Part shown: piece by piece, positions 25,347 through 64,000 of the stretch
Position numbering within the stretch: the stretch's first letter is position 1
Layout: each line of letters opens with the position of its first letter
NCBI RefSeq assembly: GCF_050920415.1
Contig: NZ_CP169309.1
Direction: 5' to 3' (one strand)
DNA length: 64,000 bases
Source: Escherichia coli
Lineage (GTDB): Bacteria; Pseudomonadota; Gammaproteobacteria; Enterobacterales; Enterobacteriaceae
Made by a program: the position numbers and the translations under genes
The notes under the pieces: model-generated
Seen by the model: the letters and a program-made list of their open reading frames with translations, nothing else
Database searches by the model: none
Told to the model about the DNA's origin: nothing

Positions 25347-27881
25347 TTAATTACTACCAAACATATCCTTGATCCAACCTGCTACGCCGTCACTGTCTTT
25401 CTGCTCTTGCTGAGCAGGTTGCTGTTGCGGCTGTTGCTGCGGCTGAGAAGACTGATCAAACGGATTGCCTGACGGTTGCTGCTGCATCTCACTCTGCTGG
25501 CACAGCGATTGCGGATCGCTGGTCCAGACCGGTAAGACACGCATGCCCCCGCTGCAGACAAAGTTGCCGTCGTAGTCCACGCCCATATCAGCAATGTCTT
25601 CTGGCGGAACAAGATTCAGCGGTGTTGGTGTCTGGTTAGCCAGATAACGCTGATAAATCGACATTGCCCCACTGGCACCATACAGTTTGGTCGGCTGGTT
25701 GTTATCACGGCCTACCCAGGTGATGGTCACCGTGCTGCCGTCAATGCCCGCAAACCAGGTATCCACGTTGTTGTTGGTAGTCCCGGTTTTGCCCGCCAGA
25801 TGCAGGTTCGGGTATTTCGCCCCAAGCTGACGACCCGTACCGCGTTGTACCACCTGCTGCATGGTCCATAGTGTCAGATACGCCGCCTGCGCCGGAACCG
25901 CGCGTTCCGCCTGCGGGAAGCTCTGATACAACACCTTGCCATCTTCCGCGATTACCGAACGCAGCGCAGAAAGCGGTGCTCGATTACCACCACTAGCGAT
26001 GGTCTGGAACGCCTGCGCCACTTCAATTGGCGTTAAGTTCAACGCCCCCAGCAGCATTGCCGGAACCGGATGCAGCTGATCTTTCGGTACGCCCAGTTTA
26101 ATCCAGGTATCCGTAACCGCAGGCAGACCCAGCGCCATCCCCAGATTCACCGTCGGCACGTTCATCGAACGTGTCAACGCATCCACCAGCATCACTCTGC
26201 CACTTTCGCTATAACGACGATCATCGTTCTGCGGTGACCAGACCTGGCCATTCGGCTGACGCAGCGCGATTGGCGCATCGGCAATCCACGTGTTCAGGCG
26301 ATAGATTTTCGGCTGGCTTAAGGCCGTCAGATAAGTCGCTGGTTTTGCAAGGGAACCAATCGAACGACGCGCCTGCATCGCACGGTTGTAACCTGCAAAC
26401 TGCGGCTCAGAACCACCAACCATCGCGCGAACTTCACCGCTAAAGCGGTCGACAACCACAATTGCCGTTTCCAGATCGCTCAGCTTTCGCTGTTTCTTCA
26501 GCGCCGGAATACCTTCCACGGCGGCTTTTTCTGCCGCGTCCTGGGCCACCGAGTCAAAGGTAGTGAAGATCTTCACGCCGGAGAGATCTTTCACTTTATC
26601 GCCCAGTTTCGCCTGTAGCTCCTGACGCACCAGTTGCATAAAGGCTGGCTGTGGAGAGATTACCCCGCCGCGCGGCTGAACCCCCAGCGGACGTGCACTC
26701 AACATGTCATAGAGCTCTTGATCAATAATCTGCTGTTGTTGCAGCAGACGCAGCACCAGGTTACGTCGCTCCAGCGCCAGTTTCGGGTTACGCCACGGGT
26801 TGTAGATGGACGCTCCTTTCACCATACCCACCAACAGCGCCTGCTGATCGAGGCTCAATTCTTCTACCGGGCGACCAAAGTAATACAAGCTCGCCAGCGG
26901 GAAGCCGCGGATTTCGTTGTCGCCGCTCTGACCGAGATACACCTCGTTCATATACAGCTCAAGAATGCGGTCTTTGCTGTAACGCGCATCCATGATCAGC
27001 GCCATGTAGGCTTCGTTCGCTTTACGCCAGTAAGAACGTTCGCTGGAGAGGAACAGGTTTTTCACCAACTGTTGCGTCAGCGTACTCGCTCCCTGCACCG
27101 TGCGTCCGGCGGTCAGGTTTGCCAGCACCGCACGTCCGATGGAGTAGAGACTGATCCCATCATGCTCGTAGAAATGACGGTCTTCTGTCGCCAGCAAAGT
27201 ATCCACCAGCAAATCCGGGAAACCACTGCGCGGCACAAACAGACGTTGCTCACCGTTTGGTGAAGAGATCATAGTGATCAGGCGCGGATCAAGACGGAAG
27301 AAACCGAACTGACGGTTGTTCTCCATATTGACGATCGTCGCCAGATGATCGCCATCAAAGGTCAGACGCGCACGCACCTGTCCTTCTTTGCTGTCCGGGA
27401 AATCAAACGGACGACGGATCATCTCAATGCTGTTGGCCTGCACGGTAAATTCGCCAGGGCGCGTCATTTTCGACACCTGACGATACTGGGTCGCCTCCAG
27501 CAGCTTCACCATCTCGTTTTTGCTGATGGTCATGTCTGGCTCAAGGTTGACCATTCGGCCATAAACAGCCGCAGGCAATTGCCAGACTTTGCCATCAATA
27601 CGGCTACGAATTTTTTGATCGAGATAAACGCCGTAAATGGCGATCAGCACGGCAAAAACAATAGCCAGTTTTAGCAGCAGCCATAGCCAGCCGCGTTTGC
27701 CACGAGGCTTACGCCCTTTGCCTTTGCCCTTACCTTTGCGCGGCATCGGTTCTTCATCCTCATAGTCATCATAATCGTCGTAATCATCGTCATCTTCGTA
27801 ACGACGACGGCTTACCTTTTGTTTGACCGGACGCGTCGGTTTCCCTTTGCGTCCAATTGGCTCGCGGTCATTCCCGGCCAT
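25347..27881 (-). CDS. mrcB: penicillin-binding protein 1B (bifunctional glycosyltransferase/transpeptidase)
   Basis: 844 aa from [15 protein letters not shown]...; acidic [15 protein letters not shown] tract; track ORF extends 5 codons upstream. Confidence 0.9.
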
Positions 27882-59712: not shown

Positions 59713-62310
59713 TTAAACCGCAGTCTGGAAAATCACCCCATCTGCTTTTTCGGTGTACTGAGAAAGCTGGTTGAAGTTCAGATAACGGTAAGTATCAACG
59801 GCTGTTTTATCTACCTGCGCCACGTAGGTCTGGTACTCTTCCGGCGTCGGCAGTTTGCCAATCAGCGCCGCAACAGCAGCCAGTTCCGCAGAAGCCAGGA
59901 AGACGTTCGCGCCAGTCCCCAGACGGTTCGGGAAGTTACGGGTAGAGGTGGAAACCACCGTCGCACCGTCTGCTACACGCGCCTGGTTACCCATACACAG
60001 GGAACAGCCAGGGATCTCGATACGCGCACCACTCTTACCGAAGACGCTGTAGTAGCCTTCTTCGGTCAACTGCGCGGCGTCCATACGCGTTGGCGGAGCC
60101 ACCCACAGACGGGTCGGCAGCTGACCTTTATGCGCATCCAGCAGTTTACCGGCGGCACGGAAGTGACCGATGTTGGTCATGCAAGAACCGATAAACACTT
60201 CGTCGATCTTCTCGCCCTGTACCGCAGACAGCGGACGTGCGTCGTCCGGGTCGTTCGGTGCACAGAGGATTGGCTCTTTGATATCAGCCAGATCGATGTC
60301 GATTACTGCTGCGTATTCTGCATCAGCATCGGCTTCCAGCAGCTCAGGATTCGCCAGCCATTTTTCCATGCCCTGAATACGGCGTTCCAGGGTACGACGA
60401 TCGCCGTAACCTTCCGCGATCATCCACTTCAGCAGGACGATGTTAGAGTTCAGGTATTCAATGATCGGCTCTTTGTTCAGCTTGATGGTACAACCGGCAG
60501 CAGAACGCTCGGCGGACGCATCGGTCAGCTCAAAGGCCTGCTCAACTTTCAGATCCGGCAGACCTTCAATTTCCAGAATGCGACCAGAGAAGATGTTTTT
60601 CTTGCCTTTCTTCTCAACAGTCAGCAGACCTTGTTTGATCGCATACAGCGGAATGGCGTGTACCAGATCGCGCAGGGTGATGCCCGGCTGCATTTTGCCT
60701 TTGAAGCGAACCAGAACGGATTCCGGCATATCCAGCGGCATTACGCCTGTTGCAGCTGCAAATGCCACCAGACCAGAGCCCGCCGGGAAAGAGATACCGA
60801 TCGGGAAACGGGTATGGGAGTCACCGCCAGTACCGACGGTATCCGGCAGCAGCATACGGTTCAGCCAGGAGTGGATTACGCCATCACCCGGACGCAGCGA
60901 CACACCGCCACGGTTCATGATAAAGTCCGGCAGCGTGTGGTGCGTGTTCACGTCAACTGGTTTCGGATACGCCGCGGTGTGGCAGAAAGACTGCATCACC
61001 AGATCAGCCGAGAAGCCCAGGCACGCCAGGTCTTTCAGTTCATCACGGGTCATCGGGCCGGTGGTGTCCTGAGAACCGACAGAGGTCATTTTCGGTTCGC
61101 AGTACGCACCCGGACGAATGCCTTTCACGCCGCAGGCACGACCGACCATTTTCTGCGCCAGCGAGAAGCCGCGATCGCTCTCAGCGACATCTTTCGCCTG
61201 ACGGAACACATCGCTGTGTGGCAGGCCGAGTGCTTCACGCGCTTTGGTGGTCAGGCCACGCCCGATAATCAGCGGAATACGACCGCCAGCACGCACTTCA
61301 TCAATCAGCACGTCGGTTTTCAGTTCGAAGGTTGCCAGCAGTTCGCCGGTTTCGTGGTTACGCACTTCACCTTTGTACGGGTAAACGTCAATCACGTCGC
61401 CCATGTTCAGGTTAGAGACGTCGACTTCGATTGGCAATGCACCCGCGTCTTCCATCGTGTTAAAGAAGATTGGTGCAATTTTACCACCGAGGCACAAACC
61501 ACCGCCGCGTTTGTTCGGTACATGAGGAATATCTTCACCCATAAACCACAGCACGGAGTTAGTCGCAGATTTACGCGAGGAACCGGTACCCACAACGTCA
61601 CCCACATAGGCCAGCGGGAAACCTTTCTGTTGCAGAGCTTCGATTTGCTTGATCGGACCAACAACACCCGGCTGATCTGGCTCGATGCCTTCACGCGCGT
61701 TTTTCAGCATCGCCAGCGCGTGCAGTGGGATATCCGGGCGCGACCACGCATCCGGTGCCGGAGAAAGGTCATCGGTGTTGGTTTCGCCAGTTACTTTGAA
61801 GACGGTAACGGTCAGTTTTTCAGCCAGCGCCGGGCGATTCAGGAACCATTCGGCATCCGCCCAGGACTGCATTACCTGCTTCGCATATTCGTTACCTGCT
61901 TTCGCTTTCTCTTCTACGTCATAGAAGTTATCGAACATCAGCAGCGTGTGAGAAAGTGCTTTGGCAGCGATCGGTGCCAGTTTGGCATCATCCAGCGCGT
62001 CGATCAGCGGATGAATATTATAACCACCCTGCATGGTGCCCAGCAGTTCGATGGCTTTTTCCGGAGTCAGCAGTGGGGATTTAGCTTCGCCTTTGGCGAC
62101 AGCAGCCAGGAAGCCTGCTTTGACATAGGCGGCTTCATCGACGCCAGGGGGAACACGGTTGGTTAACAGATCTAACAGGAATTCTTCTTCGCCCGCGGGC
62201 GGGTTTTTCAGCAGCTCTACAAGTGCGGCCATTTGGTTTGCATCCAGGGGTTTGGGCGCAATCCCCTCAGCGGCACGCTCAGCTACGTGCTTACGGTATT
62301 CTTCTAGCAC
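59713..62310 (-). CDS. acnB: aconitate hydratase B
   Basis: 865 aa assuming a GTG start ([22 protein letters not shown]...) preceded by a GAGGAG RBS; the track ORF extends 51 codons upstream. Confidence 0.93.
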
Positions 62311-62664
62311 GACGGTTCTCCTCGCTCTCATTGTCATAGTGCGGCAGGCGATTCTCTTCACGCTCCTGTGAGACAGCAGTTTGTAGGGTAAATGCCCAGT
62401 ACCGCAACGGGCAGAATAGCAGGATTTTGACGATGTGTTAATCTGTTTACAAAAAAGCAACATAAAAAAGTGGCTGAATCGTTAAGGATGGTCTAGAGAT
62501 TGTTTCCCTCCGTAAAAACTTCGTTAATTCGCATGGTGATAATCACCTTTCTCAACGAATCCCAAGATTAGTCAAAATTTAAACTACCGCCTCTTTATAC
62601 TCGGATTCACAGCACCTGCGGGTGGCAGTTCGCCGACCATTGCGATTTCCTTGAGATCCGAATT

Positions 62665-64000
62665 ATGAAAATGACTTTGCCGTTTAAACCCCATGTGCTG
62701 GCGCTAATTTGCAGTGCCGGGCTTTGTGCCGCCTCTGCAGGGCTATATATAAAAAGCCGCACAGTGGAAGCGCCTGTGGAAGCGCAATCGACACAACTGG
62801 CTGCGCCTGACATCACCGCAGTTACGCTTCCTGCAACGGTTTCCGCACCGCCCGTAACGCCCGCCGTCGTTAAAACCGCATTCAGCACTGCGCAAATAGA
62901 TCAATGGGTTGCACCTGTCGCGCTGTACCCCGACTCTTTGCTTTCACAAGTGTTAATGGCATCAACCTATCCGGCAAACGTTGCGCAAGCAGTGCAATGG
63001 TCGCACGATAATCCACTTAAACAAGGCGATGCTGCTATTCAGGCGGTATCTGACCAGCCGTGGGACGCCAGCGTCAAATCGCTGGTGGCTTTTCCGCAAT
63101 TGATGGCGTTAATGGGCGAAAACCCGCAATGGGTGCAAAACCTGGGCGATGCTTTTCTGGCGCAGCCGCAGGACGTGATGGACTCGGTACAGCGGTTGCG
63201 GCAACTGGCGCAACAAACCGGCTCGCTGAAGTCATCAACCGAACAGAAAGTTATTACCACAACGAAGAAAGCTATACCGGTAAAACAGACAGTCACGGCT
63301 CCCGTCATACCATCCAATACCGTTACAACTGCCAACCCTGTCATTACAGAGCCTGCAACAACCGTCATTTCCATTGAGCCCGCCAACCCTGATGTGGTCT
63401 ATATTCCCAACTACAACCCAACCGTGGTTTACGGGAACTGGGCCAATACTGCGTATCCGCCGGTTTATCTGCCACCACCAGCCGGAGAACCGTTTGTTGA
63501 CAGCTTTGTGCGCGGATTCGGCTATAGCATGGGCGTTGCTACTACATACGCACTATTCAGCAGCATCGACTGGGATGACGACGATCATGACCATCATCAT
63601 GACGATGATGATTATCACCACCACGATGGCGGTCATCGTGACGGTAATGGCTGGCAACACAACGGCGACAACATCAATATCAACGTCAACAATTTCAACC
63701 GTATCACCGGTGAGCATCTTACTGATAAGAATATGGCATGGCGGCACAATCCAAACTACCGTAATGGTGTGCCCTATCATGATCAGGATATGGCAAAGCG
63801 GTTTCACCAAACCGATGTCAACGGCGGCATGAGCGCCACGCAGTTACCTGCTCCAACACGCGACAGCCAGCGTCAGGCGGCAGCAAGTCAGTTTCAGCAA
63901 CGAACACACGCCACACCCGTCATTACGCGAGATACCCAACGTCAGGCAGCGGCACAGCGGTTTAATGAAGCTGAACACTATGGGAGCTATGACGACTTCC
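62665..64000 (+). CDS. yacH: DUF3300 family secreted protein, 3'-truncated by the window end
   Basis: open frame from ATG 62665 (MKMTLPFKPHVLALICSAGLCAAS...) with no stop to position 64000, which is why it is absent from the ORF track; contains an Asp/His-rich tract. Confidence 0.8.
   Translation, partial: MKMTLPFKPHVLALICSAGLCAASAGLYIKSRTVEAPVEAQSTQLAAPDITAVTLPATVSAPPVTPAVVKTAFSTAQIDQWVAPVALYPDSLLSQVLMASTYPANVAQAVQWSHDNPLKQGDAAIQAVSDQPWDASVKSLVAFPQLMALMGENPQWVQNLGDAFLAQPQDVMDSVQRLRQLAQQTGSLKSSTEQKVITTTKKAIPVKQTVTAPVIPSNTVTTANPVITEPATTVISIEPANPDVVYIPNYNPTVVYGNWANTAYPPVYLPPPAGEPFVDSFVRGFGYSMGVATTYALFSSIDWDDDDHDHHHDDDDYHHHDGGHRDGNGWQHNGDNININVNNFNRITGEHLTDKNMAWRHNPNYRNGVPYHDQDMAKRFHQTDVNGGMSATQLPAPTRDSQRQAAASQFQQRTHATPVITRDTQRQAAAQRFNEAEHYGSYDDF

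Follow-up and report, generated by a model that had tools for sequence, protein, structure and literature searches.

A candidate metal- or proton-responsive Asp/His-rich loop, probably grown from a hairpin turn by codon-repeat expansion, in the DUF3300 protein YacH of Escherichia coli

Close to one end of a 64,000-nucleotide stretch of Escherichia coli DNA, hereafter the window, the gene yacH encodes a dense run of aspartate and histidine residues. A preliminary description of the locus likened this run to metal-binding tracts and drew attention to a neighbourhood containing copper-responsive cueO and the Fe-S enzyme gene acnB. We asked whether the run is real and conserved, how it arose and what it may do. 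YacH is a member of the E. coli 'y-ome'; its proteobacterial family, DUF3300, is very large and has no detectable solved relative.

In a RefSeq genome that is 100% identical over the region, the gene is annotated as yacH / DUF3300 domain-containing protein (584 aa), and the complete gene has 584 codons (L001:6266-8020). A Pfam search with YacH returned a single match, to DUF3300 (PF11737; 265.5 bits with a cut-off of 25, E 4.5e-79). Since this match covers residues 75-332 and profile positions 2-227 of 227, the Asp/His-rich tract lies inside the C-terminal end of the DUF3300 model. An NCBIfam search with YacH found no family, and PDB sequence searches with full YacH and with the tract alone gave no match even at E up to 10. 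The main features of the coding sequence are the following:

62665..64000, plus strand: yacH coding sequence, cut by the window end at codon/residue 445 of 584 (translation, RefSeq annotation, Pfam)
62665..62739, plus strand: predicted signal peptide, aa 1-25, ...CAASA-GL, cleavage between A and G (hydropathy)
62887..63660, plus strand: DUF3300 match, comprising a helical domain, a Pro/Tyr-rich beta region and the tract-bearing hairpin (Pfam, AlphaFold2)
63568..63669, plus strand: Asp/His-rich loop, aa 302-335, DWDDDDHDHHHDDDDYHHHDGGHRDGNGWQHNGD (translation, composition statistics, Trp conservation, low pLDDT)

The reported tract is real. Codons 302-327 of yacH occupy window positions 63568-63645 on the plus strand and encode DWDDDDHDHHHDDDDYHHHDGGHRDG, in exact agreement with the coordinates and translation of the preliminary description; the first of these codons (302, GAC) lies at 63568 and the yacH ATG at 62665. 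The biased loop outruns the reported tract and continues to residue 335 (window position 63669), where it ends in ...GNGWQHNGD and gives way to the strand NININV. Over its 34 residues the loop contains 13 Asp and 9 His. With Asp or His at 20 of 25 residues, the tract scored highest in the 64-kb window when all six frames were considered; the highest value at an unrelated locus was 10, and the maximum obtained by shuffling the residues of YacH (n=2000) was 11. The binomial probability of its Asp and His content, at E. coli frequencies of these residues, is 4e-17. The tract is far from a chance occurrence. Two overlapping open reading frames were considered and rejected as by-products of the NAY-codon repeat: a minus-strand frame at 63553-63810 (85 aa, Ile/Val/Met-rich), which lies inside the strongly supported yacH coding sequence, and a plus-strand frame at 63374-63832 (152 aa, Thr/Ile/Met-rich), also inside yacH.

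YacH is probably periplasmic or envelope-associated. Its sole strongly hydrophobic segment is N-terminal (in a Kyte-Doolittle scan only residues 3-32 exceed 1.2) and includes an Ala-Ser-Ala motif, with the cleavage site placed by the -3/-1 rule and not by a dedicated predictor. An N-terminal hydrophobic segment is present in 100 of the 109 family members with complete N-termini. Mature YacH has a single His before the tract, and the tail after the tract contains 39 Arg. The C-terminal region also carries 32-aa repeats, which were found by protein alignment and missed at the DNA level by Tandem Repeats Finder.

To place the tract within the family, we aligned 113 DUF3300 representatives, with column and linker counts made over 112; the family numbers about 9,550 clusters when grouped at 50% identity (E <=1e-3). 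Besides the family-invariant residues W133, G161, Q176, R179, A182, G186 and P248, the alignment shows the near-invariance of W303, the Trp that opens the tract, which 106 of 112 sequences share. It also gives the consensus [DN]-[VI]-[ND]-[IV]-[ND]-V-N-R-Y-N for the strand after the linker, and a second conserved motif lies further downstream:

63514..63567, plus strand: Gly-rich, moderately hydrophobic segment GFGYSMGVATTYALFSSI, aa 284-301, ending in the first hairpin strand (family consensus, hydropathy, model)
63670..63699, plus strand: second hairpin strand and start of the next helix, NININVNNFN, aa 336-345 (column counts, model strand 337-339)
63739..63777, plus strand: conserved motif WRHNPNYRNGVPY, aa 359-371 (column counts, pLDDT)

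The family consensus of this last motif is W-Q-H-[ND]-P-x-H-R-R-G-V-P-Y, with Tyr replacing the second His in E. coli; its W (100 of 112), H361 (98), H365 (73), R (96) and Y (92) are widely conserved, and AlphaFold2 models residues 361-380 of YacH at pLDDT 94. Confidence is also high (pLDDT >90) across residues 71-200.

Between the conserved Trp and the following strand, most of the family has very little sequence. The median linker is 3 residues long (GHN, GRG, HHG, GGG), and 101 of the 112 representatives have fewer than 5. His accounts for 22% of linker residues and for 1.7% of residues elsewhere, a 13-fold enrichment. In the AlphaFold2 model of a typical short-linker member, P0137, the turn W-G-H-N joins strands 248-251 and 256-260 at pLDDT 87-94. 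In E. coli YacH the equivalent strands are 299-301 and 337-339, and residues 310-330 between them are modelled at pLDDT <50. As equivalent strands flank a short turn in the one protein and a low-confidence region in the other, the tract appears to be an expanded hairpin turn that is predicted to be disordered. It is also dispensable for the fold, because most DUF3300 family members lack it. The DIDIDVN strand was considered and rejected as an EF-hand or DxDxDG motif, as it has no Gly at position 6 and no Glu at position 12 and is a beta-strand in the model.

We then followed the tract through Enterobacteriaceae. With each GTDB species represented by one genome, we obtained 28 enterobacterial orthologs and one Bordetella homolog, which has no comparable tract. 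In every one of the 28, the interval that separates DW from the NINI strand is rich in Asp, His, Tyr and Gly; it is 18-35 residues long and includes 6-14 Asp and 1-11 His. Searching again with Salmonella YacH as the query brought in 120 more proteins from Salmonella, Citrobacter, Klebsiella and relatives. The 109 tracts that we extracted from them have a median length of 29 residues (range 13-41) and contain 4-17 His and 6-14 Asp. The start DWDDDD is found in 81 of these 109, and blocks of three to four Asp and two to four His alternate recurrently. The number of His is not conserved, ranging from 1 to 17 across orthologs, with one in Buttiauxella agrestis and three in Yokenella. The tract is also present in the closest non-Escherichia cluster representatives (Scandinavium, Rahnella), and more distant lineages lack it. 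Absence of the tract from orthologs, or variation without any conserved His/Asp pattern, would speak against the earlier reading; neither was found, because the orthologs (28/28, and the 109 further tracts) keep the tract with its alternating Asp/His blocks.

At the DNA level the tract is built from GAY, CAY, TAY, AAY and GGN codons and contains a repeat:

63575..63628, plus strand: degenerate tandem codon repeat in the tract, GAY/CAY/TAY codons (Tandem Repeats Finder, codon listing)

Tandem Repeats Finder reported a period of 12 in 2.9 copies (78% matches) at 63575-63609 and a period of 21 in 2.4 copies (76%) at 63578-63628. Tract length in E. coli and Shigella ranges from 23 to 28 aa, with 15 variants in a set of 120 distinct YacH proteins; the window carries the modal allele (57/120 proteins). 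The alleles differ by whole CAT or GAT codons within homocodon runs, the His runs being 3-6 and the Asp runs 3-4 residues long. In S. Typhimurium, an 8-bp deletion (GATCATCA, Asp284fs) has turned yacH into a pseudogene in strains 14028s, UK-1, SL1344 and D23580, as compared with LT2 (PMC10048834, PMC3391293), and Asp284 falls within the Salmonella tract (residues 280-310). Taken together, the codon-unit allele variation and the Salmonella deletion identify the repeat as a demonstrable indel hotspot. An apparent hypervariability of yacH as a whole in E. coli (93-97% identity) was dropped, since the acnB control shows that the window strain belongs to a rare, divergent lineage; within E. coli, yacH is only moderately more diverged than acnB.

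We propose that, in the enterobacterial lineage, codon-repeat expansion of a three-residue, often His-containing turn gave rise to a disordered Asp/His-rich loop, the expanded turn joining two conserved beta-strands at the C-terminal end of the YacH DUF3300 domain. Such a loop would be a reversible, low-affinity multi-site binder of Zn2+, Ni2+ and Cu2+, and it may also respond to protons: by our estimates its net charge is about -10.5 at pH 7, and protonation of its roughly nine His would bring this to about -2.5 at pH 5, next to a tail of about +18. The metal or proton state of the loop would then modulate the envelope activity of the DUF3300 module, in the way that the loops of ZnuA and PA4063 add micromolar Zn sites. 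We give this explanation as a whole a probability of roughly 0.5. Its parts deserve different weight. The structural and evolutionary part, an enteric codon-repeat expansion of a hairpin turn into a disordered loop, is very probable. Metal binding in vitro by such an Asp/His peptide would be close to chemically certain, and both the chemistry and the analogy with ZnuA and PA4063 indicate that the loop should bind Zn2+, Ni2+ and Cu2+ reversibly. By the same analogy a metal-binding reading of the tract is plausible. A physiological role for metal or proton binding is more tentative, and we hold it to be somewhat less probable than its opposite. The existence of yacH pseudogenes in several S. Typhimurium strains counts against a metal role. 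We rank a metal- or proton-responsive accessory loop as the most likely reading, neutral filler as the second and a polycation-binding acidic patch as the third.

If the loop were neutral filler, it would be a slippage-made insertion tolerated in a surface turn, with a function limited to solubility and a composition that merely mirrors the mutational neighbourhood of GAY, CAY, TAY and AAY codons and recurrent repeat turnover. Much of the evidence agrees with this. The four NAY codon families that dominate the tract are one first-base change apart, the length of the tract is polymorphic within species, the region is predicted to be disordered, and fewer than five residues suffice at this position in the 101 short-linker representatives. 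YacH is also faster evolving than its neighbours (46-92% identity across ortholog genomes, compared with 91-99.7% for AcnB and 95-100% for LpdA), and the four S. Typhimurium strains named above have lost the gene through the tract itself. However, all enteric orthologs that we examined keep the tract, although their synonymous sites have diverged heavily; at fourfold-degenerate sites of acnB, the window is 56-59% identical to Salmonella, Kluyvera or Raoultella. Its composition is also narrowly bounded: across genera the polar Asp/His/Tyr/Asn/Gly make-up is strictly kept, even as the order and length of the tract drift. The second base of the 745 tract codons, drawn from 29 Enterobacteriaceae, is A in 78% and G in 22%, with T and C at about 0%, whereas T or C occurs freely at third positions; just 13 residues fall outside D/H/Y/N/G/W/R and just 2 are hydrophobic. 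This pattern speaks for selection to keep the composition polar, acidic and rich in His, although continual repeat homogenisation could contribute to it, and the constraint by itself names no ligand. As orthologs also keep the DWDDDD start and the alternation of Asp and His blocks, and His was already 13-fold enriched in the ancestral three-residue turn, we regard neutral filler as unlikely, if still the strongest competitor of the accessory-loop reading.

Published phenotypes of yacH point to envelope stress and cationic peptides. The gene is CpxR-regulated and repressed by protamine and cecropin A, and a yacH deletion mutant survives protamine better than the wild type (PMC9600279). A rob mutant expresses yacH less strongly under butanol stress (PMC7537768), and the gene is induced by a cathelicidin-derived peptide (PMC6737244) and by ampicillin (PMC8865558). 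Metals are nowhere mentioned in the yacH and DUF3300 literature that we found. These data would suit a polyanionic, pH-switchable patch, in which the Asp-rich loop binds cationic antimicrobial peptides, protamine or polyamines and not metals, or else folds onto the Arg-rich tail of YacH until His protonation at low pH releases it. The estimated charges of tract and tail, the latter with its 39 Arg, are in keeping with both forms. The phenotypes, however, belong to the whole yacH gene and not to the tract, and the basic tail also occurs in non-enteric DUF3300 proteins, which lack the acidic loop. Either form therefore seems to us rather less likely than neutral filler.

A further possibility concerns the side of the membrane on which the loop lies. 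If the Gly-rich segment (aa 284-301) spanned the membrane as a helix, the tract, along with the Arg-rich tail, would lie in the cytoplasm as a juxtamembrane loop whose metal or charge role, if any, is intracellular. The segment has the family consensus G-x-[FW]-G-x-G-x-A-x-x-x-A-L-W-G, and its hydropathy over 19 residues is transmembrane-like (>=1.6) in 38 of 113 family members; the strongly basic tail that follows would fit the positive-inside rule. In E. coli, however, the segment scores <1.1, and in the AlphaFold2 models of YacH and P0137 alike it is an extended strand and not a helix, with the P0137 hairpin modelled confidently. An acidic run directly after a transmembrane segment would also break the positive-inside rule locally. 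We find this topology improbable.

We give about as little credence to an older origin, in which the tract-bearing hairpin would be an ancestral cation-binding or proton-sensing site of all DUF3300 proteins. The site would be formed by the His-enriched turn, the alternating Asp/Asn strand and the nearby W-x-H-x-P-x-H-R motif. Compared with their relatives, enterobacteria have lost the DUF2950 partner and the second His of the motif, and their strand has Asn where many relatives have Asp. By growing the turn into a multi-site Asp/His loop they might have compensated these losses, and the loop might link the metal or pH state of the periplasm to an envelope function under Cpx control, one affecting cationic-peptide susceptibility.

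The last reading is the one suggested by the neighbourhood, a copper- or iron-related site coupled to cueO and acnB. The local gene order is cueO, yacC, speE, speD, yacL, acnB, yacH, lpdA, aceF, aceE (RefSeq, 100%-identical genome). From cueO to lpdA the genes lie within one 13-kb stretch, but cueO is ~6 kb from yacH, with five genes in separate units between them, and yacH is divergent from acnB and convergent with lpdA. The acnB-yacH-lpdA synteny is conserved in Enterobacteriaceae and absent at 8/8 non-enteric DUF3300 loci examined. In 4/5 non-enteric contexts a DUF2950 gene (PF11453) follows immediately downstream of DUF3300, where E. coli has the convergent lpdA. Upstream of yacH, no consensus for Fur, Zur, CueR, CusR, NikR or RcnR, nor for PdhR, CpxR or Mar/Rob, rose above the window background, a weak negative from simple consensus scans. 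The best Zur match was 13/23 and was equalled at 123 window sites (a weak test), and the best CueR and CusR matches, 7/12 and 11/20, both occurred at the window background frequency. A sigma-70 promoter scan of 62300-62700 gave a single site, on the minus strand toward acnB, and none for yacH.

The Cpx regulon responds to copper. Together with the CpxR regulation of yacH (PMC9600279) and the proximity of the genes, this is what speaks for a copper- or iron-related site, which we nevertheless consider very improbable given the absence of a CueR/CusR box, the pairing of DUF3300 with DUF2950 elsewhere and the cytoplasmic location of AcnB as against the predicted signal peptide of YacH. Considering the distance to cueO, the divergent acnB, the enteric-only synteny and DUF2950 as the partner elsewhere, the neighbourhood gives no support for a copper or iron role, and the tract has a link to neither cueO nor acnB. 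Of the preliminary metal reading, the likeness to metal-binding tracts is fair and stands, and the argument from the cueO/acnB neighbourhood fails on the synteny and operator scans; with cueO five genes away, acnB divergent, an enteric-specific gene order and no metal-regulator box, its copper/iron context falls away.

Taken as a sequence feature, the YacH tract is an ordinary low-complexity element in a poorly understood family. Recognising it as a lineage-specific expansion of a conserved His-bearing turn tells an enteric add-on apart from the conserved hairpin and WxHxPxHR motif, the parts that merit mutagenesis. It also carries a caveat for genomics, as the indel hotspot in the tract leads to allele-length differences in E. 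coli and to pseudogene calls in Salmonella.

Compared with known systems, the tract is an undescribed instance of an established element, a slippage-born, compositionally constrained, disordered His/Asp-rich loop in an exported protein. Like other slippage-variable trinucleotide repeats it has a degenerate tandem repeat, alleles that differ by whole codons and, in Salmonella, an out-of-frame deletion. Unlike in typical codon-repeat regions, its runs are short (3-6 codons) and mixed, its variation is mostly in-frame and fixed within lineages, and there is no sign of on/off phase variation.

The non-enteric DUF3300 proteins are true homologs of YacH and have its signal peptide, helical domain, Pro/Tyr-rich beta region and Gly-rich segment, together with the invariant Trp. 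An Arg-rich tail, the [DN]-I-[DN]-I-[DN]-V-N strand and the W-x-H-x-P-x-H-R-x-G-V-P-Y motif are common to them and YacH as well. They differ in having a three-residue turn (GHN, GRG, HHG) in place of 32 residues in E. coli, and some lineages have other His-rich variants after the Trp, for example DWHRRHVVVVHHHHYHH. Their genes usually precede a DUF2950 gene, a partner that E. coli yacH lacks.

Two periplasmic zinc systems offer the closest parallels to the proposed accessory loop. In C. koseri ZnuA, a loop (residues 124-143) that is invisible in crystals is needed for two extra Zn sites, and the function of the ZnuA His-rich loop is still termed enigmatic (PMC8900738). ZnuA and YacH are alike in being exported proteins with a disordered, His-containing and acidic loop whose length varies between species; in YacH the loop is His/acidic-rich and predicted to be disordered (pLDDT <50, aa 310-330), and the N-terminus is signal-like. 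YacH nevertheless has no sequence or fold relationship to the cluster A-I solute-binding proteins with their primary Glu/His3 zinc site, and it lacks a primary high-affinity site, a Zur box and an adjacent transporter; its loop is more Asp-rich than that of ZnuA and is arranged in Asp/His blocks. In PA4063 of Pseudomonas aeruginosa, His-rich loops take part in micromolar Zn binding with Asp and His ligands (PMC8561739). PA4063, a periplasmic protein from an otherwise unknown family, has a ferredoxin-like fold and lies in a zinc-starvation operon, and YacH has neither of these nor any known metal regulation. What the two proteins share is a disordered His-rich stretch between two beta-strands, which in PA4063 is one of two such loops.

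The YacH segment that precedes the Asp/His-rich tract (window 63514-63567) is glycine-zipper-like, with the family consensus G-x-[FW]-G-x-G-x-A-x-x-x-A-L-W-G. This Gly segment showed transmembrane-like hydropathy in 38 of the 113 aligned DUF3300 relatives but not in E. coli, a difference that makes the topology of the family ambiguous. On its other side, the tract is adjoined by a second small repeat, since the hexanucleotide CAACAT is repeated 3.8 times at window 63669-63691, where it codes for the NININV strand of YacH. Besides the YacH tract, the window contains only one other acidic low-complexity tract, which spans 25 residues (27720-27794, minus strand) and which we take to resemble the N-terminus of PBP1b (mrcB).

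Past the window end, the 3' part of yacH (L001:7700-7900, in a 100%-identical strain) encodes an Arg/Gln-rich C-terminal tail with 32-aa repeats (...ARxRxQSASPEQRQ...). The common YacH allele is 616 aa long, and the 584-aa allele of the window has one 32-aa tail unit fewer; further alleles of 634, 648, and 662 aa are on record. In E. coli strain E69 (L007:4001-6583), ~830 bp of inserted DNA, which looks like an insertion-sequence element, splits yacH after residue ~368.

Upstream of the gene, a perfect palindrome, GGTGATAATCACC, is located at window 62534-62546, ~120 bp 5' of the yacH start codon, and is directly preceded by a CpxR-like element (GTAAA-N6-GTTAA). The palindrome was kept in four Escherichia loci (L002-L005), and it was not found in locus L006, in the E69 locus (L007), or in any other genus compared.

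A comparison with 5,425 complete genomes of E. coli at acnB and yacH (window 59713-64000) found only three that shared 99% identity or more with the window at either gene; most showed 95-99%. The window thus belongs to a rare and divergent lineage of E. coli. An enterobacterial yacH was also present in a record labelled 'Chryseobacterium sp. 18061' (L027), together with acnB and in enteric synteny, and a protein labelled 'Campylobacter jejuni' (VTQ53429.1, P0280) clustered with Rahnella YacH. Both records look like mislabelled or contaminated assemblies.

Outside the enterics, a DUF2950 (PF11453) gene was found immediately downstream of the DUF3300 gene in four of five distinct contexts (L031, L033, L034, L035, and L036), and the two genes often overlap in non-enteric loci. 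DUF3300 and DUF2950 therefore look like a conserved, putative two-gene module. A DUF2950 partner is typical of the non-enteric DUF3300 loci, whereas E. coli yacH stands without one.
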